A DNA stretch of 64,000 nt from Planctomycetota bacterium (GTDB lineage Bacteria > Planctomycetota > UBA1135 > UBA2386), in contig JBKAGP010000001.1 of assembly GCA_046290465.1 (NCBI GenBank), forward strand, positions 4,832,001 through 4,896,000. Reading direction: 5' to 3'. The notes beneath the pieces were generated by a model, which saw nothing but the letters and a program-made list of their open reading frames with translations, ran no database searches and was not told where the DNA came from. The position numbers were made by a program, and so were the translations under genes. How positions within the stretch are numbered: the first letter of the stretch is position 1; every line of letters starts with the position of its first letter. Positions 9,665-42,010 of this stretch are shown piece by piece.

Positions 9665-11208
9665 GCCTGCGCGCGCTGCTCGCCGCAGGGTTGGCGGTCC
9701 TGGTCGCGGCCGTCGCGTGGTGGTGCTCGCAGGTGCCGACCGCGGTGCCGCTGGCGTCCGGCTCGGAGCGGGGCGAGCAGCAGGTCGACGCAGCACTGGC
9801 GCGCGGCCGGCTCGATGCGGGGCGTGCCGAACGCTCGCTGCCTCACGACGCGGTCGAACGGCAGCTCGACGTGACGTGGTCGCTGCAGGTCAAGGTGGTG
9901 GACGCGCACGACGACGGCGTCGCGGGCGCGCGGGTCGAGGTCCGTTCGCAGCGCGGTGGCGAGGTCCGCTGCGAGGGGGTGTGCGACGAGACCGGCGCGG
10001 CCCGAATCGACGTGCAGGGCGACGCGGTGTGGGTGCGCTCGCGCGATGCCGACGTCGGCGCGAGCCTGGAGCGGTCGGTCGGGCGCACCGGTCGCAGCTG
10101 CACGCTGGCGCTGCGACGGCCGGTGCGCATGCACGGCTACGCCTTCGGGGTCGACGGCCAGCCGCTGGTCGATGCGCGCGTCGCGATCCGCACCGGCGAG
10201 GAGGGCATCGTCGCGCAGTTCCTCGGTGGCGACGAGCACGTGCCGGCGGTCCCGGCGACGATGCGCACCGATGCCGCGGGTGGTTTTGCGTTCGAGGTCG
10301 CCGCCGGCTGGTCCGGGGTCGCGCGCGTCGAGATCGACTCGGCGGATGGCTGGCCGGACACCGGCACCGTCGCGTTCACGGCGCGTGAGGGGGGCGAGGT
10401 GCTGGTCGGCCTGCCGGGTGCCTTCGTCGTGCGCGGCGTCATCGTCGACGGTCGCGGCGAGGTCGTCGAGGCGGTCGTCGAGGTGCACGCCGTCGACGGC
10501 AGGCAGGTGCTCGGTGACTACCGCAGGGCCGGACGCGACTTCCAGATCGGCATCGCGCCGGGGAAGCGGATCCGGCTCGTGGCGCGCGCCGACCAGGGAG
10601 AGGGCTACGCCGACGTGGTTGCGACGCGCAGCGACCCGCAGCCGCGGGTCGTGATCCGGCTCGGCGAGGGCCGTGCGACCGAACCGCCGTTCCGAGCGAT
10701 CCCCGACGGCGGCGTCGACGTCGTCGCGACCCTGCCCGACGGCAGCGCGCCGCCGGCGTTGCGCCACCGCTGGGTCGACGTCACGTTCGAGCGTTCGCTC
10801 GGGGACCTGCACCGGGTGGAGGGCGGCAGCTTCCACCTCGGCCATGCGCCGAAGCCGCCGGCGCGGCTGTGGGTCAAGTCGCGCGCCGGCGAGGTCGCGA
10901 CCTGGGTGGTCCCGGCCGGTCCGTTGCCTCGGCGCGTCGAGCTGCGTCTGCAGAAGCCGGTCGACGTCGAGATCTCGGTGCTGCACCGCGGCCGGCCGGC
11001 GCGCGGCCTCGACGTCACGCTGTTGGCCTGCGGCACGCGCGAGACCTTTGCGTTGGGGCCGAGCGGCGTCGCGACGTTCACGTGGATCTGCCCCGGCCCG
11101 GCCAAGGCGGTCGTGACGCGCGGCTGGGAGGTCGTCGGCGAGCAGCAGCTGTTCCTCGCCGCCAGCGGCAGCAACCGGGCGACCGTGCACGTCGACCTGT
11201 CGCGCTGA
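9661..11208 (+). CDS. Paralogous carboxypeptidase regulatory-like domain protein
   Basis: GTG start at 9661 overlaps the previous stop (GTGA); shares DVGASL and HRGRPARGLDV motifs with the upstream gene. Confidence 0.65.
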   Translation: MSLRALLAAGLAVLVAAVAWWCSQVPTAVPLASGSERGEQQVDAALARGRLDAGRAERSLPHDAVERQLDVTWSLQVKVVDAHDDGVAGARVEVRSQRGGEVRCEGVCDETGAARIDVQGDAVWVRSRDADVGASLERSVGRTGRSCTLALRRPVRMHGYAFGVDGQPLVDARVAIRTGEEGIVAQFLGGDEHVPAVPATMRTDAAGGFAFEVAAGWSGVARVEIDSADGWPDTGTVAFTAREGGEVLVGLPGAFVVRGVIVDGRGEVVEAVVEVHAVDGRQVLGDYRRAGRDFQIGIAPGKRIRLVARADQGEGYADVVATRSDPQPRVVIRLGEGRATEPPFRAIPDGGVDVVATLPDGSAPPALRHRWVDVTFERSLGDLHRVEGGSFHLGHAPKPPARLWVKSRAGEVATWVVPAGPLPRRVELRLQKPVDVEISVLHRGRPARGLDVTLLACGTRETFALGPSGVATFTWICPGPAKAVVTRGWEVVGEQQLFLAASGSNRATVHVDLSR

Positions 11209-11326
11209 ACGGCGGCCGTTCGGCGCAGCGTGTGGGCACCGTCGGCTGTCGCGATTCCGGACGCATCGGTCTGGCGGGATGCCTGGACCTGTCCGGATCC
11301 CTGACGCAGGGTGCCGCCGAACGGCA

Positions 11327-11341
11327 TGGCACGGGACTTGG
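11327..11341 (+). promoter_or_regulatory. Putative sigma54 (-24/-12) promoter
   Basis: TGGCAC-GGGAC-TTGG versus consensus TGGCAC-N5-TTGC, about 35 bp upstream of ATG 11377. Confidence 0.55.
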
Positions 11342-11376
11342 GAGGGCGGGCCTGGCCACGGGCCCCTGTTTCCAAG

Positions 11377-12870
<1,494 letters not shown>

Positions 12871-12924
12871 TCGATCGGCGCCGCACTCGCCCGCGGCGCG
12901 TCGCGGCTTCGGTCGCGTGCATCC

Positions 12925-15198
12925 ATGGACCACTTGCTCATGATCCTGGCCGTGCTCGCCACCGGCCTGGTGTTGACCGCGCTGGTGCGTCGGCGCGCTG
13001 CGGCGCGTGCCGACGTTCGCAGCCTCGACGACCGTTCGTTGGCGGTCGAGCGGGGCAGCCACCGTGCCCGCCTGCAGCACCCGAGCGTCGACCTCGCCAA
13101 CTGCATCGGCTGCGGGGCCTGCGTGCGTGCCTGCCCCGAAGAAGGCGTGTTGCAGATGGCCTACGGCCAGGCGGTGGTCGTGCACGGTGCCCGTTGCGTC
13201 GGCCACGGCCTCTGTGCGGAGGCCTGTCCGACCTCGGCGATCGCGCTGACGCTCGGCGATCTGTCGTCGCGCCGCGATCTGCCGGCGGTCGACGAACGCA
13301 ACCAGGCCATCGGTGTCGACGGGCTGTTCCTCGCCGGTGAGATCACCGGCTTCGCTCTGGTGCGGACCGCGGTGGCACACGGTGCCGCCGTGGCGGCAGC
13401 GGTGCGCGAACGCGTCGATGCGGACGCTTGCGACGACGACCTCGCCGACCTGGTCGTGCTCGGCGCGGGCCCGGCGGGGCTTTCGTGCCTACTCGCCGCC
13501 AAGGAACTCGGCCTGCACGCGGTCGGCCTCGACCAGGCGGACGAGATCGGCGGAACCGTCGCCGCCTATCCGCGGCGCAAGCTCGTAATGACGCAGCCGA
13601 TGCGTTTGCCGCTGCACGGCCGACTCGATCGACTCGAGTACACGCGGGAACAACTGGTCGAACTGTGGCAGCAGCTCGCGCGGAACCACGACCTGGACGT
13701 GCGGCTGCGTACGACCGTGCAGCGCATCGAGCGGGCGGCCGACGGCTGCTTCGACGTCGTCACCGACGCCGGTCGCCACCGCGCACGCAACGTCTGCCTG
13801 GCGGTCGGCCGACGCGGTACGCCGCGCCGCCTCGCGGTGCCCGGGGAGGAACTGGACAAGGTGGCCTACGCGCTACTGGATGCCGCGAGTTATCGCGATC
13901 GGAACATTCTGGTCGTCGGCGGTGGCGACAGCGCGGTCGAGGCAGCGCTGGCGCTGGCCGAACAACCCGGTAACGAGGTGGTGCTGAGCTACCGCCGCGA
14001 ACACTTCTCGCGCCTGAAGGCGAAGAACGAGCGGCGCATCCTGGCCGCGTTCGAGGACGGGTTGGTGGTCCCACGTCTCGGTACGGCGGTGACCGAGATC
14101 ACGCCGGCCGGCGTCGCCCTGCGCGCCTTCGGTGCGGCGCAGAGTTCCGATGCCCAAGCCGTCGCGACGGTCGCGACCGAGCGGCTGGCCAACGACCATG
14201 TGTTCGTGTTCGCCGGCGGCACACCGCCGTTCCCGATGCTGGAATCGGCTGGCGTCTCGTTCGACGCCAGCCTGCTACGGGAGCGTGAGGCGCGCGTCGA
14301 CCGCGGCGCCGGCCTGCTGGTATCGCTCACGTTCACGCTGGCCGGTCTGCTCGCACTGGTCGCCGTGCGACTCTGCTTCGCCGTCTACTACGATCTTGAG
14401 GTCGCTTGGCGTCCATCGGCGGAACTGCACCCGCTGTTGCGACCGCAGGGCGCGCTCGGCCTCGCTTGTGGCGCAGCAGCGGTGCTGCTGTTCCTGGCCA
14501 ACGTCTGCTACCTGGTGCGTCGCTCGGCGCGCATCGGGCGCAGGTTGCCCGGCACGTTGCGCAGCTGGATGAACGCGCACGTCGCGACCGGCATCGGTGC
14601 CTTCCTGTGCGCGATCGTGCACAGCGCGTACTCGCTCCGGGACAGCGCCGGTGGTCACGCGCTGCTGGCGATGGGCGTCGTCGTGGGCGCCGGCATCGTC
14701 GGGCGCTGGTTCTACGCGTTCGTCCCGCGGGCGCAGAACGGTCGACAGCAGCGCATCGAAGAACTGTCGCAGCGGGTCGCCGCGATCGCGACGGAGTGGG
14801 ACCGCGATGGACGTGGCATGGGCGTTCAGGCTCGTCGCATGGTCGAAGAACTGGTGGACCGCGCCGAGATCGGCCAGACCCTGCCCGGCCGCATCTGGGG
14901 GCTCGTGCGTAGCCAGTGGCAGCTTCGTCGTCGACTCGAACGATTTGCGGCAGCGGCACGCACCCAGGGGGTGCCCACGCACGACATCGCCCGGATGGTG
15001 CGGCTGTCGCGGCGTTCGTTCCGTCTGGCACTGCAGCTTGCCCACTACGACGACCTGCGGGCCCTGCTGTCGACGTGGCGTTGGCTGCACCGCTGGCTGG
15101 CGCTGCTGTTGGCTGCGCTACTGGTCGTACACGTCGTCTCCGCCGTCCGCTACGGCGGTATCGAGTGGCCGACACCCGGAGCGGAGGGTGGTCGATGA
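12925..15198 (+). CDS. Membrane-bound ferredoxin / FAD-NAD(P)H oxidoreductase fused to a His-containing (cytochrome b-like) membrane domain
   Basis: N-terminal TM; CIGCGACVRACP and CVGHGLCAEACP; GLFLAGEITG, GAGPAG, VGRRGTPRRL.VPGE, VVGGGDSAVE, SYRRE; C-terminal helices with WMNAH, IVHSAY, WRWLHRW, LVVHV. Confidence 0.85.
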   Translation: MDHLLMILAVLATGLVLTALVRRRAAARADVRSLDDRSLAVERGSHRARLQHPSVDLANCIGCGACVRACPEEGVLQMAYGQAVVVHGARCVGHGLCAEACPTSAIALTLGDLSSRRDLPAVDERNQAIGVDGLFLAGEITGFALVRTAVAHGAAVAAAVRERVDADACDDDLADLVVLGAGPAGLSCLLAAKELGLHAVGLDQADEIGGTVAAYPRRKLVMTQPMRLPLHGRLDRLEYTREQLVELWQQLARNHDLDVRLRTTVQRIERAADGCFDVVTDAGRHRARNVCLAVGRRGTPRRLAVPGEELDKVAYALLDAASYRDRNILVVGGGDSAVEAALALAEQPGNEVVLSYRREHFSRLKAKNERRILAAFEDGLVVPRLGTAVTEITPAGVALRAFGAAQSSDAQAVATVATERLANDHVFVFAGGTPPFPMLESAGVSFDASLLREREARVDRGAGLLVSLTFTLAGLLALVAVRLCFAVYYDLEVAWRPSAELHPLLRPQGALGLACGAAAVLLFLANVCYLVRRSARIGRRLPGTLRSWMNAHVATGIGAFLCAIVHSAYSLRDSAGGHALLAMGVVVGAGIVGRWFYAFVPRAQNGRQQRIEELSQRVAAIATEWDRDGRGMGVQARRMVEELVDRAEIGQTLPGRIWGLVRSQWQLRRRLERFAAAARTQGVPTHDIARMVRLSRRSFRLALQLAHYDDLRALLSTWRWLHRWLALLLAALLVVHVVSAVRYGGIEWPTPGAEGGR

Positions 15199-17165
15199 AG
15201 CTCTGGCGTTGGCTGTTGCCAGCCTTGTCGTTGGCTGCCGTGGTCGTCTTCACCTGGTGGGACGTCTCACGGGTGCAGGCCGGTCCGGGACCTCTGCATC
15301 CGGTCCACGCGATGGCGAGCGGGCTCGACCGTGGTGCCAACTGCGCGGGCTGTCACGAGCGCGGTGCGGTGGCCGCCAGCGGTTGCATCGCATGCCACCA
15401 ACCGATCGGCAACCAGCTGAGCACGCATCGCGGCGTTCACGGATCGTTGCCGGCCGCCGCTGCGCGAGCCTGCGGGACCTGCCATTCCGATCACCACGGC
15501 GACCAGCGCCCCCTGCTGCCGACGGTCGCGTTCGTTCGCGCGGGGATCGAGCACGTCGAGGCCTACCGGCACGAACACAATGCGTTCGGGTTGGAAGGTG
15601 TGCACGAGACGCTGGCCTGCGAAGCCTGCCATCCACACGCGCGCGACGAGCATCCGCCCGCCGGTGGACGGTTCCTCGGCAAGTCGCAGCGTTGTGCCTC
15701 CTGCCACAAGGACCCTCACCGAGGTGCGTTCGGTGGCGACTGCGCCGTCTGCCACGTACAGCAGCCAGGCTGGCAGCCGGCGGCGCGCCTACGCCACGAA
15801 CGGTTCGCCTTGGAGCACGGCCACGCAGCCGTCGCCTGCACGGACTGCCACGACGCGGGCGGCGAGCGTTCCGTCTCGCAAGAACTCCAGTCGCAACTGC
15901 CGGTGCGCGTGTGTGCCGACTGCCATGCCAACCCACACGGGACCACGGCGGTTGCGGTTGCGGATCCGTCGGATTGCGCCCGGTGCCACTCGAGCGCGTC
16001 GTTCGGCGGCGTGCTGGCCGCGCCTGATGCGCACGCGGCCCTCGGTCACGAACTGCACGGTGTACACCGCGACGTGTCCTGTCGTTCGTGTCATGGAGAA
16101 CCGGGTGGGCGACCGTCCTGGGGGGCGGGATCCGCACCGACGCCGGCCGACTGTGCGGGCTGCCACGAAGCGCCGCACGATGCGGCGCTGCTGCGCGCGG
16201 CCGACGCGGTCGAGGGAGCCAACGGTTGCGCCGACTGCCACCTCGACTCCGACGCCGGCTTCGAGAGCGGTCGCATCACTCCATCGCTGCATGCGGCCAC
16301 TGGGTTTGCGCTGGCGGCGCCACACGACGAGGTCGCGTGCAGCACGTGCCATGTCGGCGCGACGCGGTCGCTCCGCTTCCCCGACAGACAACCGGGCGAC
16401 TGTCGCGTCTGCCACCCGGGGCCGCACGGAGCGCAGTTCGTGGATGGTGGATCGATGCGGGCCTGCACCGTCTGCCATGCGCGCGACCGCTGGCAGCCGC
16501 ACCACTTCGACGCCAACGCGCATGCGGCCACGTTCCCGCTGACAGGCGCGCACGACGCGGTCGCCTGCACGCTGTGCCACCAACGGGACGACGCTGGCGT
16601 GCGCAGGTTCGTCGGCACGCCGGATGCGTGCGCACACTGTCACGAGGATGTGCACACTGGGCGTTTCGATGCGGAGGGCCTGCCGCGCGAGGTCGACGGC
16701 CGGGACGGTTGCGCCCGTTGCCACGACCCCCGGGGCTTCCGGCAGCTGCGCACGCGGTTCGAGCACGGGCCATGGACGGGTCATCGGCTCGAGGGGGCGC
16801 ACGCGGAGGTTGCGTGCAGTGCCTGCCACGCACGTAGACCTGCGGGCGGCCTTGGCGCCGCTCCGGGCAAGCGTTGCAGCGACTGCCACGACGATGTGCA
16901 CCGCGGCCAGTTCGCCGTTGGCAAGGAGGCGCGGCGGGCGACCGACTGTCGGCGCTGCCACCAGCCGACCAGCTGGCCGGAGATCCGCTTCGACCACGGT
17001 CGCGACAGCCGCTTCCGGCTCGACGCGACCCACCGCCAGCTAGCGTGCTCCAGGTGCCACGTGCCGCGGCAACAGCGCGATGGCAGCACGTTCGTGCGCT
17101 ACCGACCGCTCGGACGCGAATGCGCCGACTGCCATCACTTCGGCGGCAAGGAGTCTGGGCGATGA
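15195..17165 (+). CDS. Multiheme cytochrome c, 23 CxxCH motifs, N-terminal signal/anchor
   Basis: Start MKLWRW at ATG 15195 (ATGA overlap); 23 CxxCH counted by hand; repeated H..F.L.G.H..V.CxxCH modules. Confidence 0.95.
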   Translation: MKLWRWLLPALSLAAVVVFTWWDVSRVQAGPGPLHPVHAMASGLDRGANCAGCHERGAVAASGCIACHQPIGNQLSTHRGVHGSLPAAAARACGTCHSDHHGDQRPLLPTVAFVRAGIEHVEAYRHEHNAFGLEGVHETLACEACHPHARDEHPPAGGRFLGKSQRCASCHKDPHRGAFGGDCAVCHVQQPGWQPAARLRHERFALEHGHAAVACTDCHDAGGERSVSQELQSQLPVRVCADCHANPHGTTAVAVADPSDCARCHSSASFGGVLAAPDAHAALGHELHGVHRDVSCRSCHGEPGGRPSWGAGSAPTPADCAGCHEAPHDAALLRAADAVEGANGCADCHLDSDAGFESGRITPSLHAATGFALAAPHDEVACSTCHVGATRSLRFPDRQPGDCRVCHPGPHGAQFVDGGSMRACTVCHARDRWQPHHFDANAHAATFPLTGAHDAVACTLCHQRDDAGVRRFVGTPDACAHCHEDVHTGRFDAEGLPREVDGRDGCARCHDPRGFRQLRTRFEHGPWTGHRLEGAHAEVACSACHARRPAGGLGAAPGKRCSDCHDDVHRGQFAVGKEARRATDCRRCHQPTSWPEIRFDHGRDSRFRLDATHRQLACSRCHVPRQQRDGSTFVRYRPLGRECADCHHFGGKESGR

Positions 17166-18811
17166 GTCTGGGTGCCTTGCCGCGTGCGTGCATCGTCTGG
17201 TCGCTCGCCGTGGTCGGCGCACTCTCGCAGGAACAGGTGTCGACGCGGGTGGTCGCGGTGCGGGTCGTCAGCGCGACCGCAGACAGCGTCTACCTCGACC
17301 ACGGCCGCGATGTCGGAATCGCGATCGGTGACCGGGTGCTGCTGTTTCCGCCTGGCGGCGGCGACGTGGAGGTCGTCGTGCGTTCGGTCACGCACTCTTC
17401 GGCTCGCTGCGAACCGGCGCCTGGAGTCCCTGTTGCGCCCGTCGGAACGACCGGTGAAGCGGTCGTTCCGAAGACCGCGCCTCGCCAGGATCGCGGGACG
17501 CAGGCTCCGCAGCACGCGCCGTGGGAACGGCCGGTCGCGCCGCGTAGCGCGGACCAGCCGCTGCTCGTGCCGACGTTCGGCCGTCGTCCCGAGGACCGCG
17601 CGACCGAGGTTCGCGGCCGCCTGTTCGGGTTGGCACAGGCCAATCGGGATCGTCAAGGTGGCGACAGCGACTACCTGCTGCTGCGGACCGGGCTGCGGGC
17701 GACCACGGAGAACCTGTTAGGTGCGGCCGACGTCGTGCAGCTCGCCGGCGAGTGGAGCCTGCGTGACGTGTCGATCGAAGGGCGCGAAGGGCAGACCGAC
17801 CAGACTGGCCGGCTCGACCTGGCGTCGGTGTCGCTGGGCACCGAGGACTACGCGCCGGTCGGCTTGCAGGTCGGGCGGTTCCTGTCGCGGCACCTGCCCG
17901 AGATCGGGCTCGTCGACGGCGCCGAGGTCGTGCTGCGCTACGAGGGTGGGCTGCGGGTCGGGGGCGGCGTCGGTGCCTATCCGCGTCCGTATCCGGCGCG
18001 CAATGGGGGCGACGACGTCGGGGTGCATGCGTTCGTCGACTACGTGGCCGACGAGGCGCGTACGTTTGCGGTGGCGCTCGGCGTACAGAAGACCTGGCAT
18101 CGCGGCCGCGCCGATCGTGACCTGGTGGTCGCGCGCGCAGAATGGCGGCCGTCGCGGCGCTGGACGGTGCTCACCAACGCCAGGGTCGACCTCTACACGG
18201 GTGACGAAGCGATCGTGACGTCGAAGGCGGAGCTGACCGAGCTGCTGGCGCAGGTTCAGTGGCGCGGGGATGTCGTCGGGGCGTCGGTGGTCGGCTCGCA
18301 CTTCTCGTGGCCAGAACTGCTGCGTGCCGAGTACCAACTGTTGTCCGCCGAGCTGGTTCGGGACGGCGCGGTCGATCGCGTCGCGCTACGCGGTTGGTGG
18401 CGTCCGGCGGACTGGTGCACTCTTCGGCTGCGCGCCGATCGCTTCGAGGACCAGGCGCGCGACGGCACGTCGGCGCGCGCCGACGCGGAACTGCGCGGCC
18501 TGCTCGGAGAGCGCTCATCGTTGGCGATGGCGGCGTTCCAGAGCGATGGTGGCTACACGTCGGGGCCCGGCGCTTCGGCGATGCTGCGCGAGCAGTTCGC
18601 GGGAGCGCGGCTGCGGCTCGGCTACCGCTGGCATCGCTACTCACTCGACTCGCTCGTGACCGGCCCAGAGACCCGGGTCCGTGAGTCGCTGCAGTTCGGT
18701 TGTTCGTGGCAGCTGTCGGACCGGTGCGACGTCGACGTGCAGGTCGAGCGCTGGTTCGGCGATGGCCAGGACGCGTTCTCGGCCGGCTTGTTCGTGCAAT
18801 GGAGGCTGTGA
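17162..18811 (+). CDS. Probable outer-membrane beta-barrel (porin) with an N-terminal soluble domain
   Basis: Start MSLGAL at ATG 17162 (ATGA overlap); signal peptide; long run of amphipathic beta-strand-like segments; ends FSAGLFVQWRL; lies between two multiheme cytochrome genes. Confidence 0.7.
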   Translation: MSLGALPRACIVWSLAVVGALSQEQVSTRVVAVRVVSATADSVYLDHGRDVGIAIGDRVLLFPPGGGDVEVVVRSVTHSSARCEPAPGVPVAPVGTTGEAVVPKTAPRQDRGTQAPQHAPWERPVAPRSADQPLLVPTFGRRPEDRATEVRGRLFGLAQANRDRQGGDSDYLLLRTGLRATTENLLGAADVVQLAGEWSLRDVSIEGREGQTDQTGRLDLASVSLGTEDYAPVGLQVGRFLSRHLPEIGLVDGAEVVLRYEGGLRVGGGVGAYPRPYPARNGGDDVGVHAFVDYVADEARTFAVALGVQKTWHRGRADRDLVVARAEWRPSRRWTVLTNARVDLYTGDEAIVTSKAELTELLAQVQWRGDVVGASVVGSHFSWPELLRAEYQLLSAELVRDGAVDRVALRGWWRPADWCTLRLRADRFEDQARDGTSARADAELRGLLGERSSLAMAAFQSDGGYTSGPGASAMLREQFAGARLRLGYRWHRYSLDSLVTGPETRVRESLQFGCSWQLSDRCDVDVQVERWFGDGQDAFSAGLFVQWRL

Positions 18812-20532
18812 TGGGTTCCCGTTCGATCGCCACTACGTGTCTGCGTCGTGAATACATCTGCCTGTGGATCTGGTTGCTCGTGGTTGCTTGTGTCAACCTG
18901 GTGCCGCGGCAGGGATGGGACCCCGCGCGAGGCCCGGTCGTGCCGCACGATACGTTTCCGGCAGACTGCGCGCTGTGTCACGAAGGCGGCGACTGGAGCG
19001 TCGTGCGGGCGGACTTCGAGTTCGACCACGAGCGTGAGACCGGCCATGCGCTCGAGGGGGCGCATGCCGACGCCTCGTGCCTGATGTGTCACAACGACCG
19101 GGGCCCGGTGGCGATGTATGCGGCACGTGGTTGCGGCGGCTGCCATGCGGACGTTCACCAGCGGCGCCTCGGCAGCGATTGCAGCACGTGTCACGATCAG
19201 CAGACGTGGCTGCCGCGCGAACAGATCGCCAAGCACGACATGACGCGCTTCCCACTCGTCGGTGCCCACGCCTCGGCTGCGTGCTTCCGGTGCCACCCCG
19301 GAGCGCAGGTCGGCAACTTCGCCGGGACACCGGTCGAGTGCGCGGTCTGCCACGCGCAGGACTACGCGGCGACGACGGCGCCGAACCACGCGCAGGTCGG
19401 CTACGCGCAGGACTGCGAGATGTGCCACCTCGAGACGGGTTGGCAACCCGCGCGCTTCGACCATCCGGGGTCGTTTCCACTCGAACGCGGCCACTTCGGT
19501 CTGGCGTGCGCCGAGTGCCACGAGACCCCAGGTGTGTTCGCGGGGCTATCGACCGATTGCGGCAGCTGCCACGACGACGATCACCAGGCGGTGACCGATC
19601 CGAGCCACCTGGCGGCGGGCTTCGGCCTCGACTGCGAGCAGTGCCACGACACGCGGCTGTGGTCGCGCGTGACCTGGACCCATCCGACCGGGTTCGAACT
19701 GACGTTCGGCCACGCTGGTCGTCGCTGCAGCCAGTGCCACGTCGGCCAGAGCTACGTCGGCACCGGCACCGAATGCGTGTCGTGCCACTTGCCGATCTAC
19801 GAGGCGACGCAGAATCCCAGCCATGTGACGGCCGGGTTCGGGCAGGACTGTGAGAGTTGCCACAACACTGCGATCTGGCAGGGCGCGACGGTCGACCACC
19901 CGGCGAGCTTCCCGCTCGAGAACGCGCATCGCCAGGCGTGTGCGACCTGTCACCAGGTGGTCGGCACGTATGCCGGGCTGGATCCATCCTGTGCGTCGTG
20001 CCACCTGCCCGACTTCCAGACCGCGATCGAACCCAACCACGTCACCGCGGGATTCGGGACAGACTGTCAGACCTGCCATGGTACGACCGCCTGGCAGGGG
20101 GCAACGTTCGTGCACCCGGCGTCGTTCCCGCTGCAGAATGCACACCAGGTTGCCTGCGCGGCCTGCCACCAGAACGGGGTCTACCAGGGGCTCGACCCGT
20201 CGTGTGTCGCCTGCCACATGCCGAACTACCAGGCAACCAACGACCCACCGCACGGCGCGTTCCAGCTCAGCACGCAGTGCGAGCAGTGCCATGCAACGCT
20301 GACCTGGGGCACGGCGCCGGGGTGGCAGCACGCGTTCCCGATCACTTCGGGAGACCACGCCGGAATGACGTGCTTCGACTGCCACACCAATCCGGCCAAT
20401 CGCACCGCGTTCTCGTGCATCGCCTGCCACGAACACAACCAGCAGGAGATGGCGGACGAGCACGACCGCGTGTCTGGCTACCTTTGGGTGTCGGCATCGT
20501 GCTACGGCTGCCATCCGAGCGGGCAGAAGTAG
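18811..20532 (+). CDS. Multiheme cytochrome c lipoprotein, 22 CxxCH motifs
   Basis: Start at ATG 18811 (TGATG overlap); lipobox-like LLVVAC; 22 CxxCH counted by hand; repeated three-heme modules (HPASFPL.NAH...C..CH). Confidence 0.95.
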   Translation: MGSRSIATTCLRREYICLWIWLLVVACVNLVPRQGWDPARGPVVPHDTFPADCALCHEGGDWSVVRADFEFDHERETGHALEGAHADASCLMCHNDRGPVAMYAARGCGGCHADVHQRRLGSDCSTCHDQQTWLPREQIAKHDMTRFPLVGAHASAACFRCHPGAQVGNFAGTPVECAVCHAQDYAATTAPNHAQVGYAQDCEMCHLETGWQPARFDHPGSFPLERGHFGLACAECHETPGVFAGLSTDCGSCHDDDHQAVTDPSHLAAGFGLDCEQCHDTRLWSRVTWTHPTGFELTFGHAGRRCSQCHVGQSYVGTGTECVSCHLPIYEATQNPSHVTAGFGQDCESCHNTAIWQGATVDHPASFPLENAHRQACATCHQVVGTYAGLDPSCASCHLPDFQTAIEPNHVTAGFGTDCQTCHGTTAWQGATFVHPASFPLQNAHQVACAACHQNGVYQGLDPSCVACHMPNYQATNDPPHGAFQLSTQCEQCHATLTWGTAPGWQHAFPITSGDHAGMTCFDCHTNPANRTAFSCIACHEHNQQEMADEHDRVSGYLWVSASCYGCHPSGQK

Positions 20533-20625
20533 CTAGGGACGGCGTGGCGATGGGAGTCTGCGCGATCGGGGCGATGGGGTAGCATTTGTGCGCGCGTGTC
20601 TAGCCGGCGCTGCGACCAACGCCCC

Positions 20626-21954
20626 ATGAACCGAGAAGAAGGCCTGATCGATCGTCCGTCGCCCGCGCGGTTCTTCGTCGACGCGGCGTTCGCTCTGGTC
20701 GCCGGCTGGCTCCTGTATCGATTCTCGTGCGTGCTGGTCGAGCCGAGCCTGATGGTCGGCGGCGGCTTCGAGGTCGACTGGCAGAAGATGTCCGTGGATC
20801 CGTTCGCGCTGCCCGGTCGCTTCCCGCACCGGATCCTGGCGCCGCTGTTGGCGTGGCTGCTCGGCTACGGCGGGGAGGGCTACCTGACGTTCACGCACGG
20901 TCTGCACGTGCTGCTGCTGGCGTCGACGTTCTTCGTGGTCTTGCGGCTGCGCGGTCGCTACCTCGATGCGCTGCTGGTCGGCGCCGTGATCGCGGTGACC
21001 GCGCCGACCCAGATGTACAAGCTGCACTGGAACGGCTACACCGACCCGATCTGCTACACGCTGTTCTTGTGGATGATCGTCGCGGCGCGGCACCCGCACG
21101 TGTTCTGGCCGCTGTTCCTGATCAACCTCACCAACCACGAACTGGCCGGCTTCCTGCTGCCGTGGTTGTTCTTCCTGCGGCGATGCGCGGACCGGCGCTG
21201 GAAGCTCGATCTGGTCTGGATCGCCGCGACCTGCGGCGCCTACGTCGCCTACTACCTGATCGTCAAGTCGAGCGCGCAGCAGCTGTTCAGCGCTGACTAC
21301 TTCCTGGCGCATCCGCTGTTCCCCGGCGGTTCGTTCGCGGTGTGGAACCTCGCGGCCGTTCACCTGGTGACGACCTTCGGCCCGATGCTCGCCGTGCTCG
21401 CGTGGCATCAGCACGGTCGGCCGCTGCCGGGTGAGCGCTGGCACCTGTGGTTAGTGCTGCTCGGCGTGGTGGTCATCTTCTGCATCGCGTTCGACTGGGC
21501 GCGGCACAGCAACCTGCTGATGCTGCCGTTGGTGATCGCGTCGGCGCGCTTCCTGCAGTCGGGCAACGCCTACCGCCTGGTGTTCGCCGGCTTGATCGGG
21601 CTGACGTTGTTCCTGTTCTGGCTGGTGCCGCCGTGGTCGCCGACCGCGTGGCCGACCAACGTCGTCGTCGAGGGCCCGGTGGAATGGCGGCAGGAGTTCA
21701 ACCCGACCAACCATCCCGCCAAGCGCCTGATGATCCAGTCGGGTCTGGTCGTGCCCTATCCGGGCGCGAAGGGGCTGAACATCGGCTTCGGCCCGCTGTC
21801 GTCGGCGCTGCAGGGGTGGCTGCCGGTCGTGTGGCGCACGTTGCTCGTCTGCCACCTGATCGGCGTGGCAATCTGGATCGGCGGATGGCTGCTGACGCGT
21901 CTGCGCCGGTTCGCGCCGCCGCCTCCGAACGGCCACCTGGCCAGCGGTTCGTGA
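20626..21954 (+). CDS. Polytopic membrane protein, possibly a GT-C-like glycosyltransferase
   Basis: About 10 hydrophobic helices; FPHRILAP, YTDP and NHE motifs. Confidence 0.55.
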   Translation: MNREEGLIDRPSPARFFVDAAFALVAGWLLYRFSCVLVEPSLMVGGGFEVDWQKMSVDPFALPGRFPHRILAPLLAWLLGYGGEGYLTFTHGLHVLLLASTFFVVLRLRGRYLDALLVGAVIAVTAPTQMYKLHWNGYTDPICYTLFLWMIVAARHPHVFWPLFLINLTNHELAGFLLPWLFFLRRCADRRWKLDLVWIAATCGAYVAYYLIVKSSAQQLFSADYFLAHPLFPGGSFAVWNLAAVHLVTTFGPMLAVLAWHQHGRPLPGERWHLWLVLLGVVVIFCIAFDWARHSNLLMLPLVIASARFLQSGNAYRLVFAGLIGLTLFLFWLVPPWSPTAWPTNVVVEGPVEWRQEFNPTNHPAKRLMIQSGLVVPYPGAKGLNIGFGPLSSALQGWLPVVWRTLLVCHLIGVAIWIGGWLLTRLRRFAPPPPNGHLASGS

Positions 21955-22039
21955 GTGCTGTCCGCCGCGATCTGGCTGGTCGGTAGGTGGGTGGGGCGTA
22001 GGGTTTTGTCGCGGTGCGGATGTGTCCGATACTGGCGGG

Positions 22040-24097
22040 ATGACCGATGTGATGGCCGGATGGACCTCGGACAACCCGTTCTCGACTCCCAGTGTGCTGC
22101 CGTTCGAGGCTCCGGCGTTCGATCGGATCCGTGAAGAGCACTACCTGCCGGCGTTCCGTGCCGGTATGCAGCGGCACCTCGAGGAGGTGCGCGCGATCGC
22201 CGGCAGCGACGAGGCGCCGACGTTCGCCAACACGGTCGAGGCGATGGAACGGGCCGGCGACGTGCTCGAGCGCACCGCGCGGGTGTTCTTCAACCTGACC
22301 GGTTCGACGACGACCGACGGGCTGCAGAAGATCCAGGCGGAGGTCGCGCCGGAGCTCGCGGCGCACAGCGACTCGATCTGGCTGGACGCGCAGCTGTTCG
22401 CGCGCGTGCAGGAGGTCTACGACCGACGCGACGCGCTGCAGCCGGAGGAGAAGCAGCTGACCGAGCGCTACCACCTGTCGTTCGTCCGTCACGGCGCGCG
22501 ACTCGACGAGGCGCAGCAGCAGCGCATCCGGGAGATCAACGAGCGCAGCTCGCAGCTGACGACCAGGTTTCAGGAGTGCCTGCTCAAGGAGACCCAGGCG
22601 CTCGGCGTGCTCGTCGACGACAAGGCGGAGCTCGCCGGCCTCAGCGACGGCGACGTCTCCGCCGCCGCGGACGCGGCCAAGGCCGCCGGTCACGAGGGCA
22701 AGTACCTGATCACGATCGAGCTGCCGACGTCGCAGGGGATCCTGTCGTCGCTGGCCGATCGCGACACGCGCCGCCGCGTCTACAACGCGTCGATCTCGCG
22801 CTGCAACCGCGACAACGAGCACGACACCAAGGAGATCGCCCGGGAGCTGTGCGCGCTGCGCGCCGAACGCGCCGCGCTGCTCGGCTACGAGACCCACGGT
22901 CACTACGTGCTCGCCGACGAGACTGCCGGCACCCCGGACGCGGTGCGCGAGATGATGGGCAGCATGACCGCGGCGATCGTCGACAAGGCGAAGGCCGAGG
23001 CCGCCGAGCTGCAGAAGCACCTCGACGAACATCTGCCGGGCACGCAGCTCGAGCCGTGGGACTGGGCCTGGGTCGCCGAGCAGGTGCGCCAGGCCCGCTA
23101 CGACCTCGACGAGAACGAGGTGAAGCAGTTCTTCGAGTTCGAGCGGGTCCTGACCGACGGCCTGTTCTTCATGGCCGAGCAGCTCTACGGCGTGACGATG
23201 AAGGAGCGCACCGACCTGCCGGTCTACCACGACGACGTGCGCGTGTTCGAGATGTTCGACGACGCCGGGGAGTCGATCGCGTTGTTCTATGCCGACTACT
23301 ACGCGCGGCCGAGCAAGCGCGGCGGAGCCTGGATGAGCAGCTTCGTCGACCAGTCGACGCTGCACGGCCACAAGCCGGTCGTCGTCAACGTGATGAACAT
23401 CAAGAAGCCGAGCCAGGGTCCGACCCTGATGAGCTTCGACGAGGTCACCACGATGTTCCACGAGTTCGGCCACGGCGTGCACGGCATGTTCAGCCAGGTG
23501 CGCTTCCCGATGCTGTCGGGTACCTCGGTGCCGCGCGACTTCGTCGAGTTTCCGTCGCAGTTCCACGAGGACTTCGCGTTCGACCCGGCAGTGCTGGAGC
23601 GCTGCGCGAAGCACTACCGGACCGGGGACGCGATGCCCGACGAACTGCTGGCCAAGGTCAAGCGCGCCCGCAAGTTCGGCCAGGGCTTCGCGTCGCTCGA
23701 GTACATCGCCGCCGCCTGGCTCGACCTCGCCTGGCACTCGTTGCCGAACGGTACCCAGGTCGACGACGTCGCCGCGTTCGAGCGCCAGGCGCTGCAGGCC
23801 GCGGGTGTGCACATGGAGCTGGTGCCGCCGCGCTACAAGAGCACCTACTTCGCGCACATCTGGCCGGGCGGCTACTCGGCTGGCTACTACGCCTACCTGT
23901 GGAGCGAGGCGCTGGCCGCCGACGGCTTCGCCGGCTGCATGGAGAACGGCGGCATGACGCGCGAGAACGGCCAGCGCTTCCGCGACGCGGTCCTGTGCCG
24001 CGGACTCACCCAGGAACCGCTCGCCCAGTTCCGCTCCTTCCGCGGCCGCGAACTGGACACCACTGCCGTCCTCGAACGCCGCGGCATCGGTTCGTAG
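22040..24097 (+). CDS. dcp: M3 family metallopeptidase (peptidyl-dipeptidase Dcp-like)
   Basis: NPF..P..LPF.AP.FD.I, KRGGAWM, MFHEFGHGVHGM, VPRDFVEFPSQ, GYSAGYYAYLWSE. Confidence 0.92.
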   Translation: MTDVMAGWTSDNPFSTPSVLPFEAPAFDRIREEHYLPAFRAGMQRHLEEVRAIAGSDEAPTFANTVEAMERAGDVLERTARVFFNLTGSTTTDGLQKIQAEVAPELAAHSDSIWLDAQLFARVQEVYDRRDALQPEEKQLTERYHLSFVRHGARLDEAQQQRIREINERSSQLTTRFQECLLKETQALGVLVDDKAELAGLSDGDVSAAADAAKAAGHEGKYLITIELPTSQGILSSLADRDTRRRVYNASISRCNRDNEHDTKEIARELCALRAERAALLGYETHGHYVLADETAGTPDAVREMMGSMTAAIVDKAKAEAAELQKHLDEHLPGTQLEPWDWAWVAEQVRQARYDLDENEVKQFFEFERVLTDGLFFMAEQLYGVTMKERTDLPVYHDDVRVFEMFDDAGESIALFYADYYARPSKRGGAWMSSFVDQSTLHGHKPVVVNVMNIKKPSQGPTLMSFDEVTTMFHEFGHGVHGMFSQVRFPMLSGTSVPRDFVEFPSQFHEDFAFDPAVLERCAKHYRTGDAMPDELLAKVKRARKFGQGFASLEYIAAAWLDLAWHSLPNGTQVDDVAAFERQALQAAGVHMELVPPRYKSTYFAHIWPGGYSAGYYAYLWSEALAADGFAGCMENGGMTRENGQRFRDAVLCRGLTQEPLAQFRSFRGRELDTTAVLERRGIGS

Positions 24098-37383: not shown

Positions 37384-38000
37384 CTCGAGGTGAGAGGGGC
37401 GGACTCTGACGAACCCGTCCATGTAGCCCGCTCCACCAGAAGGAGAAGCAGACCGACCCATGACGCAGCTGGCCGGCCCTCGGTCCCATGATCGTCGGAC
37501 TGGACGTGGCGACCGGACGACGGATCTCCATGATCTGCACGCGAAATCCGTGCACCCGACTCGTTCGCCGATGGCGGCCAGTTCTCTGTCAGCGGCAGTG
37601 CCCCCGGCGGGCCGACGTCGTGATCGAGGCATAGAAGGCTGGAGCTCCCGACATGCTGGCCAGCGCTCCCCACCGGACCGAGCAAGCTCACGCCGCGCGC
37701 GCGCGGTTCCGAGCGCCCCGGCGCCCGCTCCGCCACGGTTGGGATCGCCCACGAAGTCGATCCGACAACTCGCTCGATGGATTACGGCAGTGTCCAGGTC
37801 GCGCTACCCAGCCCACTCCACGGTCGCGGTGCCGTGTGCGTCCGAAGCCTGCTCAAGCGCGTCGACGATGACGACCCGGGATTAGACAGACCTGTCGAAC
37901 CTCCTGACCAGAATTGGGATCAGTAGGTGGGGGTGTTGGGGCGGGTTGCGGCGATGGGGGTGCGGGATAGCATGACCGGCGGTGGTGGCGGGATTCGGTT

Positions 38001-38022
38001 CGCTGCCTAAGACTAGTTGGGC
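38001..38022 (+). other. Array entry site, attI-like simple site (CGCTGCCTAAGACTAG/TTGGGC)
   Basis: GTTGGGC at 38016 matches the inverse core GCCCAAC (39364) of cassette 1, but no attC hairpin precedes it. It loosely resembles the attI1 end CCCTAAAACAAAGTT. Confidence 0.5.
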
Positions 38023-38065
38023 GGACGCCGAATCTGCGCCCTTGACCTGCTAGACTTCCCTTCGA

Positions 38066-39373
38066 TTGGAGGACCCCGTAGTCGTTGCCCGCATGGAGGA
38101 ATCCGCTGCCGAGCTAGAGTCGATCGCTGAAACGTTGCAGCAGTTGGTCGACCGGTGTGAATCGTCCGAGGGCTGGAAGATGCTCGACGCGGTCGAGGAA
38201 TCTGCCAGTGATGTCGGGAGGTCTTGGAGCGGCTCGTGGCTGGGTTATCACTCCTGTGTTTACTACCGAGACCTGCAGCCGCCCCACGCGGGCCATCACT
38301 TCAGTAGTGAGTGGGGCCTGCAGGACACCATGATCCAGTACACGATTGGTCCATGGCAGGAATACAAGCCCGAGGACGTAGAGCAGGCGGTTTTCACCAA
38401 GGCCGGAAACCCGAAGCTAGACGACGCCCGTGAAATGGCTGATGCCCACGGCCGCGCTTTTGATCACGAGCAAGCAAAGGTTGTCTCGATCCTGGAGCTG
38501 GAGTCCTCAGGAGCCGAGAGCGATTCGCTCAAATCATTCCTGGCGGATGCCAGGAAGCTCGCAGTGCCTAAGCCAAATGACTTCGTCGCCTACATGCGTC
38601 CAGCTGGTCAGTTGATGTCCCGTGATAGTCTCGCTGCGACGCAGGGCGTGAAGACTCCACCGCACTTGAAGATCATTGCTCAGGTGATGGCGACCCGAGG
38701 GGCTAGTGAGGTATGCGGCGAGCTTGCAGCGATCTGCAAGAAGGCCGCAGCGCATCTGCACCGACTCGCAATCAAGCGACAGTCCGCAGGAGGCGCAGGT
38801 GAGCCCGAGTCCAAGGAACCACGTGCGGATGCCAGCAAGATGACGATCAGCGAGCTCGTAGGAGGGCTCCGACCGGCACATCTGTGGAAAGTAGTTGCAG
38901 CGCTCCTAGGGCTGCTTGGTGGGGCCTTTACCTTGGGATATAAAACACATGGAATCATCGGTGACGAAGCAGGTGCCGAGAGCAAACCGGGTCTGGCCGA
39001 GGGGGCACATGCCGAATCGCGGCCGAGCGATACACCCGGCGACAGCGCTGTGCTTGAGCTTGAGCATCGTTGCCACTGGATACGGACGCATGTGCTTGCC
39101 GACAATCTTACTGTGAAGCAAGCATGGGAGGCGCAGCGGGCGCTCGATGGAGGAGGTGGCTCCTTCCGAGCGGCAGATGATCAATATCGCGATCGCAACA
39201 TAGAGGCGGTCACGCGCGAGCGTTCCAATAGGGACCTGTTGTCAGCCATTACCACCCTTCGGCGCCTACTTTCGGAGGTGCCTGAATCTTCTCGGGATGG
39301 GCAGCTTGTGGAGCCTGTGTTGGCAGGCAAGATCCGGACGGCGGCAAGTTGCTTGCCGGGGCCGCCCAACTAG
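38066..39373 (+). CDS. Cassette 1: hypothetical protein with conserved N-terminal SWSGSWLGYH...HFSSEWG domain and one TM helix
   Basis: 435 aa; stop immediately follows the attC inverse core; TM-like LWKVVAALLGLLGGAFTLGY. Confidence 0.75.
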   Translation: MEDPVVVARMEESAAELESIAETLQQLVDRCESSEGWKMLDAVEESASDVGRSWSGSWLGYHSCVYYRDLQPPHAGHHFSSEWGLQDTMIQYTIGPWQEYKPEDVEQAVFTKAGNPKLDDAREMADAHGRAFDHEQAKVVSILELESSGAESDSLKSFLADARKLAVPKPNDFVAYMRPAGQLMSRDSLAATQGVKTPPHLKIIAQVMATRGASEVCGELAAICKKAAAHLHRLAIKRQSAGGAGEPESKEPRADASKMTISELVGGLRPAHLWKVVAALLGLLGGAFTLGYKTHGIIGDEAGAESKPGLAEGAHAESRPSDTPGDSAVLELEHRCHWIRTHVLADNLTVKQAWEAQRALDGGGGSFRAADDQYRDRNIEAVTRERSNRDLLSAITTLRRLLSEVPESSRDGQLVEPVLAGKIRTAASCLPGPPN

Positions 39374-39427
39374 ACACAGGAGCTGACGACGCTTCGCGTC
39401 GCAGCTCAGTGCCCAAAGACGTTAGAC
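39364..39427 (+). repeat. attC site 1 (64 bp)
   Basis: GCCCAAC tagacacag GAGCTGAC GACGC TTC GCGTC GCAGCTC agtgcccaaagac GTTAGAC. Confidence 0.92.
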
Positions 39428-39730
39428 GAGCCTGCCTGCCGCACTCGCGGCTGGCGAGCAGCACATGCCAAGGTTCGCGTGGTAGGCGGCGTGGCTAGCA
39501 AGCGGTCGATGGCTTCGACAGCACAGTCGCCGTTCACCGGCGTGGCAGCGAGGTCGTGGCATCCACGGGCAACGCATCCGAGTGCAGCGACGAGGCAGAG
39601 CCGGTTGAGGCGGCAGGCCGATCAGAGCAGCCACAGGCAGTTGACGAGGGCCTGCCGAGCACCAGAATGGTCGTCTAACTCGTCGCAGGAGCTGACAGCG
39701 CTTCGCGCTGCAGCTCAGCGACCGGAGACG
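39421..39730 (+). other. Cassette 2: gene-less or pseudogenised cassette, copy A
   Basis: Near-identical to 40144-40452. The small ORF present in copy B is broken here by CAG>TAG and a 1-bp indel. Confidence 0.85.
39641..39668 (+). promoter_or_regulatory. Putative sigma70-type promoter in cassette 2 (TTGACG-N16-CAGAAT)
   Basis: Lies just before attC2 and points at the next cassette; conserved in copy B at 40363-40390. Confidence 0.45.
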
Positions 39731-39736
39731 TTGGAC
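39673..39736 (+). repeat. attC site 2 (64 bp)
   Basis: GTCTAAC...GAGCTGAC AGCGC TTC GCGCT GCAGCTC...GTTGGAC. Confidence 0.92.
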
Positions 39737-39754
39737 GGACCGTTGTCGACCCCC

Positions 39755-40096
39755 GTGGATGTCCGTGTTGAAGCACTCCGGGATCTCATCCAGTGCCGGC
39801 GGCCCGTCTCCTCAGCTGTCGATCGGATTGCAAGGTTCGACTTCGCGTGTGCGGGGGAGTTGGTGTCACTTGAGGTTGCTCATGTTCGCGCTGTTTTGGG
39901 TCGCTTCGTTGCGGGCGAGCTGTCTGCAGTAGATGTCGCCGACTGGGCGAGCGCGCTTGAGGGGCGCGAGGATGTTGCGTACTCCCAGCGGGTAGCGGAT
40001 GCGCTTTTCGTGCTGTCTGCACCGGGGATCAACGGTGCGCTGACTCGTTCAGTGGCGCTCGAGATGATGGCTGGCTACGATAGGCCGTCCAACTAG
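39755..40096 (+). CDS. Cassette 3: small hypothetical protein
   Basis: GTG start inside the cassette boundary (the longer 39479 ORF crosses attC2); stop follows the inverse core; motif WASALEGREDV. Confidence 0.7.
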   Translation: MDVRVEALRDLIQCRRPVSSAVDRIARFDFACAGELVSLEVAHVRAVLGRFVAGELSAVDVADWASALEGREDVAYSQRVADALFVLSAPGINGALTRSVALEMMAGYDRPSN

Positions 40097-40150
40097 TCAC
40101 AGCAGCTGACGGGGCTTCGCCCCGCAGCTGAGTGACCAAAGACGTTAGAC
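40087..40150 (+). repeat. attC site 3 (64 bp)
   Basis: GTCCAAC...CAGCTGAC GGGGC TTC GCCCC GCAGCTG...GTTAGAC. Confidence 0.92.
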
Positions 40151-40452
40151 GAGCCTGCCTGCCGCACTCGCGGCTGGCGAGCAGCACATGCCAAGGTTCG
40201 CGTGGCAGGCGGCGTGGCAAGCAAGCGGTCGATGGCTCGACAGCACAGTCGCCGTTCACCGGCGTGGCAGCGAGGTCGTGGCATCCACGGGCAACGCATC
40301 CGAGTGCAGCGACGAGGCAGAGCCGGTTGAGGCGGCAGGCCGATCAGAGCAGCCACAGGCAGTTGACGAGCGCCTGCCGAGCACCAGAATGGTCGTCTAA
40401 CTCGTCGCAGGAGCTGGCAGCGCTTCGCGCTGCAGCTCAGCGACCGGAGACG
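40144..40452 (+). other. Cassette 4: copy B of the duplicated cassette; contains only a doubtful 70-aa ORF (40188-40400)
   Basis: Differs from copy A by 4 substitutions and one 1-bp indel over about 309 bp (manual alignment). Confidence 0.85.
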
Positions 40453-40458
40453 TTAGCA
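40395..40458 (+). repeat. attC site 4 (64 bp)
   Basis: GTCTAAC...GAGCTGGC AGCGC TTC GCGCT GCAGCTC...GTTAGCA. Confidence 0.92.
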
Positions 40459-40477
40459 AGACCGGGAGAGTCGTCGG

Positions 40478-41494: not shown

Positions 41495-41503
41495 GCTCGG
41501 GCT

Positions 41504-41567
41504 TGCTAACTAGTCGCAGGAGCTGACAGCGCTTCGCGCTGCAGCTCAGCGACCAAAGACGTTGGAC
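41504..41567 (+). repeat. attC site 5 (64 bp)
   Basis: TGCTAAC...GAGCTGAC AGCGC TTC GCGCT GCAGCTC...GTTGGAC; TGCTAAC complements the cassette-start GTTAGCA. Confidence 0.92.
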
Positions 41568-41583
41568 AGGCCGTCGTCGAATC

Positions 41584-41919
41584 ATGAGTCGAGACGTCGA
41601 GGTCGAGATCACCTACCTGCCAACCGAGCACGGCGGGAGATCGAGCCCAGCTTTCAACGGCTACCGACCGCAGTTCTACTACGCCGGCAACGACTGGGAT
41701 GCGCAGCACGAGTATCCCGACGTGGAGCGAGTAGCGCCGGGCGAGTCGGCCCGTGCATTTCTGAATTTCTTGTCTCCCGCGCAGCACGTCGGACGAGTAG
41801 TCGCCGGCATGCCCTTCTTGATTCGCGAGGGCAACCGAGTTGTTGGCTACGGACGCGTCCGGCGGGTCGTTGACCTCGAGCAGTCCGCGGCACGTGACGA
41901 TCAGCCGCGCAGTGAGTAG
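41584..41919 (+). CDS. Cassette 6: stand-alone EF-Tu C-terminal (domain III)-like protein
   Basis: 111 aa: EHGGRSSPAFNGYRPQFYY...VAPGE...GMPFLIREGNRVVGYG.V resembles EF-Tu EGGRHTPFF.GYRPQFYF...F.IREGGRTVG.G; no GTPase domain. Confidence 0.85.
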   Translation: MSRDVEVEITYLPTEHGGRSSPAFNGYRPQFYYAGNDWDAQHEYPDVERVAPGESARAFLNFLSPAQHVGRVVAGMPFLIREGNRVVGYGRVRRVVDLEQSAARDDQPRSE

Positions 41920-41922
41920 GCT

Positions 41923-41985: not shown

Positions 41986-42010
41986 AGACCGGTCCGGCCA
42001 AGGAGGAGCC

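Follow-up and report, generated by a model that had tools for sequence, protein, structure and literature searches.

Four overlapping genes (A to D) at positions 12925-20532 of a 64,000-nucleotide stretch of a Planctomycetota genome (contig JBKAGP010000001.1; the whole stretch is hereafter called the window) probably encode a self-contained, outward-running electron conduit that is fed by NADPH and serves reductant export. This reading builds on domains, motifs, synteny and a gene fusion seen in the sequence, and on models of a barrel fold and of C-D binding. To our knowledge, extracellular electron transfer in Gram-negative bacteria begins at the quinone pool in the characterised cases. The fusion in gene A suggests direct NADPH input that would bypass this pool. 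The original prediction for this DNA had correctly described four genes that overlap by ATGA (A/B and B/C) and TGATG (C/D) and that carry 45 CxxCH motifs (23 in B and 22 in D, out of 51 found over all six frames of the window), and it missed one piece, a predicted diheme-b membrane domain that is fused to the flavoprotein and would make the path continuous. The four genes and the parts of A are as follows.

12925-15198, + strand: gene A, 757 residues; fused input subunit with anchor, ferredoxin, TrxR/YpdA-like flavoprotein and predicted diheme-b membrane domain
Residues 3-21 of A: N-terminal membrane anchor
13081-13245, + strand: ferredoxin domain of A; CxxCxxCxxxCP plus CxxHxxCxxxCP, Pfam Fer4_10 over cut-off
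13276-14265, + strand: flavoprotein domain of A; circularly permuted TrxR fold, GGGDSA...YRR
14311-15147, + strand: membrane domain of A, PCC3-type; residues 463-741, W548-H552/H566 and W718-H722/H736
15195-17165, + strand: gene B, 656 residues, 23 CxxCH; cytochrome c with N-terminal anchor
17162-18811, + strand: gene C, 549 residues; signal peptide, small beta domain and 22-strand outer-membrane barrel
18811-20532, + strand: gene D, 573 residues, 22 CxxCH; lipoprotein cytochrome c

Conservation of the operon and domains of gene A

A-B-C-D is a real, intact and conserved operon. The region 11000-22200 is unbroken on a contig from another study, with 81 substitutions and 1 indel that lies outside the genes, and since this separate contig spans the region in one piece, neither the fusion in A nor the gene order is an assembly artefact. 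From a GTDB scan that gave at least 599 pattern matches, at least 583 of them confirmed, we kept the best 80 loci; since these were picked by similarity to A and are related, the locus counts measure conservation and should not be read as independent trials. The flavoprotein, ferredoxin and diheme domain lie on one polypeptide in 63 of the 80 loci, which speaks for the NADPH-fed reading, while 11 loci are split and 6 contain the flavoprotein only. Conservation of the four-gene order, which the original prediction had proposed as a check, was found: among the fused loci that extend 4.5 kb or more downstream (51 loci), 45 have the exact order A-B-C-D, and of the other six, five have the porin and cytochromes rearranged or interrupted and one has neither. 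A porin homologue is present in 13 of the 17 non-fused loci. The genes flanking the unit do not belong to it, as they gave no matches (downstream membrane gene) and two weak matches (upstream FG-GAP gene) among the 80 loci.

Known homologues by name are from Planctomycetota, and the window contains planctomycete cytochrome domains. Within this phylum, 49 of 301 genomes match A at E <=1e-60 (17 of 28 in the host order), and a full-length match to A is present in 32 of 301 genomes, with two in 12 of them and an internal stop at 3 places. Split forms occur, by record label, in Calditrichota, Zixibacteria, Marinimicrobia, Acidobacteriota, Bacteroidota, Pontiella and Gemmatimonadota, and a fusion occurs in Elusimicrobiota. 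A quick tree of 61 of 101 rows, with the fused rows thinned to about 1 in 3, placed the fused forms in one Planctomycetota clade (support 99), beside split operons, in which the flavoprotein comes first and then the membrane protein, and beside the further fusion in Elusimicrobiota; three rows labelled split within the fused clade (L037, L076, L084) sit at or near a locus end. Split halves mostly lie next to each other: in another small phylum, the membrane protein is present in 26 of 52 genomes, with the flavoprotein no more than 1.5 kb away in 14 of 20 fetched loci. The "Alphaproteobacteria" label of one locus (L092) was not trusted, its GTDB phylum having given only 52 genomes. Plasmid pEMTOL02 of the cultured Emticicia oligotrophica carries genes for ccsA, the membrane protein, the flavoprotein, a 23-heme cytochrome, a 40-heme cytochrome and the porin, the last five each homologous to parts of A-D. 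Separately, a contig-cut cytochrome gene with 102 CxxCH motifs lies upstream of a porin homologue in Bryobacteraceae, Acidobacteriota (L083:1-7479).

The original proposal of a cytoplasmic flavoprotein that uses pyridine nucleotides as the entry point is supported by the domains predicted in A, together with an NADPH-type signature. Pfam identifies a 4Fe-4S dicluster domain at residues 53-107 and Pyr_redox at residues 175-446. In the second iron-sulfur (Fe-S) motif His94 replaces a Cys, and this His is invariant in 88 rows and in 14 further rows of mostly split forms. The closest solved structures to the flavin domain are YpdA/Bdr and TrxR-type ferredoxin-NADP+ reductases (7a76, E 4.5e-17; 7a7b; 3ab1), which also have no CxxC; no redox CxxC was found within the flavin domain of A. 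These enzymes differ from A in that A is circularly permuted, membrane-bound and fused, and the equivalog scores of A fall far below cut-off for both thioredoxin reductase (65.6 vs 343 bits) and YpdA (120.7 vs 340 bits). The permutation follows from the position of GLFLAGE (residues 133-139), an FAD motif that is usually C-terminal and that in A precedes the Rossmann GxGxxG. This segment has weak matches in C-terminal portions of GltD and TrxR (E 0.04-0.55), and a Sphingobium homologue without the permutation has the corresponding profile segment after the NADPH domain, i.e., in reversed order. The second dinucleotide motif reads GGGDSA followed by YRR or YRK, with R357 invariant in 88 rows, a pattern that we take to be the signature of NADPH enzymes of this fold.

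Examination of the membrane domain demonstrated that WX3HX13H occurs twice, with both copies present in all of the best 120 of the 276 homologues found, and that the two HX13H pairs (H552/H566 and H722/H736) are invariant in alignments of fused and split homologues; the domain is predicted to carry two b hemes. With the flavoprotein on the cytoplasmic side, both His pairs would run in the same direction, placing one heme near each membrane face. Hydropathy gives four helices, and the domain probably has five transmembrane (TM) helices, the fifth placed from the His motif. Since basic residues follow the anchor, TM2 and TM4, the flavoprotein is expected to be cytoplasmic. The Ferric_reduct model (PF01794) scored 25.8 bits (E 1.2e-5), under its cut-off of 28. 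Among the same 120 homologues, 110 are 700-850 residues long and only one has SG in the TM4 motif, which reads AGIVG in A, whereas split membrane-protein homologues are ~290 residues long and 10 of 11 have SGxxG.

Distant homologues of the membrane domain adjoin other NAD(P)H flavoproteins: FNR-family proteins with FAD, NAD and 2Fe-2S domains in Methylophaga and Alteromonas, and a Pyr_redox/cNMP/Fe-S protein in Sphingobium. The two FNR-family loci are plasmid-borne and contain the reductase, the related membrane protein and a 7-heme cytochrome, beside ccm genes in Methylophaga (L122:5962-9316) and at the head of a NiFe hydrogenase cluster in Alteromonas (L123:5839-9322). At three other loci (L114:9035-11368, L115:8502-10619 and L116:9481-11778), the permuted flavoprotein has a different fused membrane partner, a polyferredoxin domain (Fer4_5), and the neighbourhood lacks multiheme cytochromes. 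By its domain combinations, the permuted flavoprotein is apparently a mobile NAD(P)H-to-membrane module.

The cytochromes and the outer-membrane barrel

The original prediction had described B as bearing a signal or anchor and D as bearing a lipobox, and both descriptions hold. The N-terminus of B is a hydrophobic stretch without a lipobox, and that of D contains the lipobox VVAC with Cys27 (position 18889). In an alignment of D N-termini, with the rows cut at this Cys, 51 of 51 share it, and a loosely defined lipobox is present in 51 of 51 D-like proteins vs 3 of 55 B-like proteins. Gene B has 28.5 residues per heme with visible 3-heme repeats, and its heme count is 23 or 26 in 52 of 54 fused loci. 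We infer from these features that B would be a periplasm-spanning wire. The TIGR03508 (DmsE/MtrA) model scored 45.3 bits, far under its cut-off of 192.2, and B has 23 hemes vs 10 in MtrA. Gene D has 26.0 residues per heme, and its heme number ranges from 6 to 43 across 51 loci; its N-terminal 7-heme domain is conserved (60% mean column identity) and the repeats beyond it are variable.

The product of 17162-18811 had been proposed as a transmembrane beta-barrel, and structure prediction bore this out. AlphaFold2 with a 90-row alignment gave a 22-strand barrel at residues 149-548 and a small beta domain at residues 28-103, with a predicted local distance difference test score (pLDDT) of 85.4, replacing a single-sequence run with a pLDDT of 32. 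Fold searches return outer-membrane barrels, the top structural matches being 22-strand TonB-dependent transporters (FyuA, Z 17.2, root-mean-square deviation 4.8, 383 residues aligned), and MtrB matches with Z 13.1, deviation 6.2 and 345 residues aligned. No Pfam or NCBIfam family matched C, and no Plug or TonB-receptor Pfam match was present in C or in 16 porin homologues. There are 1245 relatives of C at E <=0.001 among 50%-identity representatives. An Atlas feature search with the barrel listed a cluster of mainly Pseudomonadota (0.96), which serves as a lead only. Two single proteins, P0343, which joins B-like hemes to a porin, and P0227, which joins a porin to D-like hemes, may be artefacts and were not used.

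Modelling of the barrel with the cytochromes had also been proposed, and the part of this that covers D gave a pass. The two-chain model of C (residues 24-549) with D (residues 27-226), D being the only cytochrome modelled with the barrel, scored 0.74, vs 0.00 for the best of 3 controls, which were non-cytochrome proteins; the mark is reached by 116 of 157 solved pairs vs 2 of 215 mismatched pairs. Contacts agree between runs in at least 71% of cases, and the partner pLDDT is at least 66. In this model residues 84-217 of D contact alternating polar residues on 19 of the 22 barrel strands (hydropathy -1.18 vs +0.54 for neighbours), with D115-119 at mid-barrel and D146-169 at the outer rim under standard barrel topology, so that the lipid anchor would be periplasmic and the variable repeats would point outward. 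The model thus has the N-terminal heme domain of lipoprotein D threading through barrel C, and the predicted surface exposure of D depends on it.

Likeness to PCC3 and other known systems

The closest described system is PCC3, predicted in 2017 as a porin, two cytochromes and an inner-membrane protein, and modelled as quinone-linked via a quinone-active cytochrome b (He et al. 2017, PMC5566968). There, the PCC3 inner-membrane protein stands alone, is ~300 residues long and has no annotation, and the motifs given for the PCC3/PCC4 inner-membrane protein are WX3HX13H on TM3 and TM5 and SGxxG on TM4. The PCC3 cytochromes are described as a 21-27-heme periplasmic protein and an outer protein of variable heme number, with 22-39 residues per heme and repeats (PMC5566968, PMC10734462). 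The operon studied here has the same four components, with 23 hemes, 22 strands and 22 hemes vs 24, 22 and 22 in Leptothrix cholodnii (PMC5566968), and it shares the barrel porin, the periplasmic heme number, the residues per heme, the repeats and the two WX3HX13H motifs. It differs in its planctomycete rather than proteobacterial host, in AGIVG instead of SGxxG on TM4, and above all in a membrane protein to whose N-terminal side a ferredoxin and an NADPH-type flavoprotein are joined (757 residues, not ~300), PCC3 as described being four genes with no named flavoprotein. From a comparison with the described features of PCC3, we class the operon as a PCC3-like variant rather than a proven member.

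The original prediction had missed that the core of porin, two cytochromes and inner-membrane protein was already predicted in 2017 (PMC5566968); PCC3 is still a prediction, and its function is stated as "not tested" in bioRxiv 2025.02.27.639646. No flavoprotein fused or coupled to PCC3 is described in the available text of PMC5566968, PMC10734462, PMC13386937, PMC8238504 and three bioRxiv preprints (the one above; 2026.05.27.727921, which has clusters of 8-13 hemes and neither "NAD" nor "inner membrane" in its main text; and 2022.03.26.485925, which has Planctomycetota with unnamed novel cytochrome clusters), with subscription papers outside this scope. The available portions of PMC5492636, PMC9386147, PMC13608581, PMC4245776, PMC7399161 and PMC6344600 are likewise without this cluster plus a flavoprotein. 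Unnamed "other redox proteins" adjoin related membrane proteins in the "MHC + IMP + redox protein" clusters of Table S6 (PMC5566968), and Fig. S4 of He et al. (domain architectures) or the bioRxiv supplements may already name a flavin domain. This locus adds the fusion on a single chain, a minimal form of four genes, and the model in which D threads the barrel.

PCC4 and the "MHC + IMP + redox protein" clusters are similar in that a membrane protein with two HX13H motifs lies beside multiheme cytochromes and a redox protein, and in a PCC4-like Sphingobium cluster the Pyr_redox/cNMP/Fe-S protein takes the position of the "other redox protein". They differ in having 4-, 5- and 10-heme cytochromes, no outer wire, and a redox protein that is neither fused nor permuted. 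MtrCAB of Shewanella and OmbB-OmaB-OmcB of Geobacter share a cytochrome inside an outer-membrane barrel, and are fed from quinol via CymA, ImcH or CbcL. In contrast to MtrCAB and MtoAB, C has no MtrB family match and the modelled occupant of the barrel is a lipoprotein. The ferric reductase superfamily (NOX, FRE, and MsrQ with Fre) resembles A in leading from NAD(P)H through flavin to two b hemes on HX13H pairs. The NOX dehydrogenase is an FNR-fold FAD/NADPH domain after the membrane domain, whereas in A a Pyr_redox fold and a ferredoxin lie ahead of a membrane domain of ~5 helices, and the output is a 45-heme wire. MsrQ-like proteins with NAD-binding fusions exist (PMC8238504), and MsrQ is described as fed by a cytosolic NADH oxidoreductase (PMC12525009).

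Proposed electron path, alternatives and genome context

We infer the following path in its cofactors, its NADPH preference, its A-B and B-D contacts, its direction and its acceptor. Cytoplasmic NADPH would reduce the FAD of A, from which electrons would pass to the two Fe-S clusters, the inner b heme and the outer b heme, as in the logic of NOX and ferric reductases. The outer b heme would feed the membrane-anchored 23-heme B across the periplasm, B would feed the N-terminal hemes of lipoprotein D inside barrel C, and the repeats of D would deliver the electrons to an extracellular acceptor, e.g., Fe(III) or Mn oxides or chelates, redox-active organic matter, or O2. The role may be redox relief, metal mobilisation or surface redox chemistry. 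The fusion in A, the adjacent split halves and the distant homologues beside NAD(P)H flavoproteins together argue for a cytoplasmic nucleotide donor, by analogy with NOX/FRE and MsrQ (PMC12525009, PMC8238504). Outward flow would be favoured on thermodynamic grounds because the potential of NADPH (-0.32 V) and the membrane potential both drive it, and, because electrons that leave the negative side of the membrane for the positive one spend membrane potential, the path would be one of reductant export and not of energy-conserving respiration. The suggestion that the wire could run in either direction was overstated, inward reduction of NADP+ being expected to run uphill against both potentials.

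Several observations weigh against NADPH-fed export. The host looks like an aerobic heterotroph, with 3 genes of the COX1 (heme-copper oxidase) family, and neither RuBisCO nor a NiFe hydrogenase was found in its 94% complete genome; habitat-labelled holders of this DNA are algae, marine and aquaculture metagenomes, in which a mineral acceptor is not obvious. One locus (L033, 9824-12205) has a full fused A whose flanks contain neither a porin nor a multiheme cytochrome up to 10 kb away in both directions. The barrel residues that contact D show no conservation in excess of that of the other strand residues (0.47 vs 0.46, p=0.71), and the pass of the C-D model may stem from a general resemblance to MtrAB as a cytochrome in a barrel. 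In addition, MsrQ also binds ubiquinone (PMC12525009), leaving room for quinone exchange.

Such exchange is central to the alternative that we rank directly after NADPH-fed export and consider unlikely, in which, as in the PCC3 model of He et al., the diheme domain lies between B and the quinone pool, the flavoprotein is an NAD(P)H:quinone branch, and the conduit serves respiratory export or uptake. The proposed quinone-active cytochrome b, the ubiquinone of MsrQ and the four described PCC3 genes without a named flavoprotein agree with it; however, most of the loci examined have the flavoprotein fused or as a neighbour, and the abstract on MsrQ argues that the quinone is an acceptor, not a donor (PMC12525009).

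Ranked next, and improbable, is a chain that ends in the periplasm or outer membrane, with D a periplasm-facing lipoprotein or capacitor and C a TonB-receptor-like 22-strand import channel for, e.g., an Fe-chelate that is reduced inside the envelope. Lipoproteins default to the periplasmic face, and the FyuA-type matches of C fit such a channel, but C has no Plug or TonB-receptor match and an N-terminal domain of only ~75 residues, and the complex model fills the barrel lumen with D. The near-constant length of B alongside a D of 6-43 hemes also argues against it, since a B that spans a fixed gap and a D that extends freely are expected to vary in this way. Last comes an inward conduit, in which an external donor or partner cell reduces NADP+ or ferredoxin for biosynthesis; although the solved structures nearest to A include TrxR-type ferredoxin-NADP+ reductases, and PCC3 is described as present and expressed in Fe(II) oxidisers, beating NADPH and the membrane potential would take a donor at about -0.45 to -0.5 V, and with RuBisCO not found in the host we regard this as very unlikely.

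NADPH-fed export would matter beyond this genome, in that PCC3 has not advanced beyond prediction since 2017, its input being guessed as quinone, and a natural fusion names a likely donor and predicts a direction. The fusion also reduces the system to four genes, with A a single purifiable enzyme and the split version available in a cultured strain. If it holds, PCC3-like clusters used as markers of iron oxidation or respiration would need revised annotation, and the module would offer a compact means of wiring cytoplasmic NADPH to electrodes. As a tentative extension, which we think possible but doubtful, PCC3-type conduits may in general be a widespread "NOX with a nanowire" and not quinone-linked, i.e., a membrane-potential-assisted NADPH valve that exports reductant directly to the cell surface, with D threaded through a 22-strand barrel and with exchangeable tips in the form of long repeats or of a distinct 11-heme protein; aerobic particle- and alga-associated heterotrophs would then have an unrecognised extracellular reduction of metals, organic matter or O2.

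The host genome, a single contig of 6.59 Mb, contains one CcsA-type maturation gene, and no gene of the NapC/CymA family was found in it at 94% completeness, which counts in favour of the NADPH-fed reading. A second copy of the operon is present at 5,002,749-5,012,274 (L001:5750-15272), with identities of 45% for A, 38% for B and 28% for C, and with a 7-heme D plus a separate 11-heme protein of 951 residues. This 11-heme protein comes after 7-heme D genes in 8 other loci and one fragment, suggesting that the outer modules are interchangeable. A PCC4-like cluster at ~2,617,500-2,631,200 (L002:3500-17230) contains a two-HX13H membrane protein, a cNMP/Fe-S protein, 15-, 17- and 10-heme cytochromes, a Pyr_redox/FHA protein and a porin-like gene.

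No sigma-70-like promoter was found at the locus, terminators are at chance (4 vs 4.0), and no Rfam family matched in the window. Datasets listed as containing this DNA include no RNA, and two poly(A) RNA runs, which do not serve as a test of transcription, gave 0 reads. GC content at third codon positions (GC3) is 0.80-0.84 in the four genes vs a genome median of 0.94 for long open reading frames and 0.92-0.96 in the paralogous operon, possibly owing to later acquisition or low expression. Elsewhere in the window, positions 38000-46000 form a low-GC island (0.61-0.65 vs ~0.70) of mostly unassigned open reading frames with a GC3 of 0.65-0.72 and one DUF4917, which was probably acquired horizontally, and positions 49931-54548 encode an FG-GAP repeat protein followed by a di-heme oxidoreductase (DHOR) with two CxxCH motifs.

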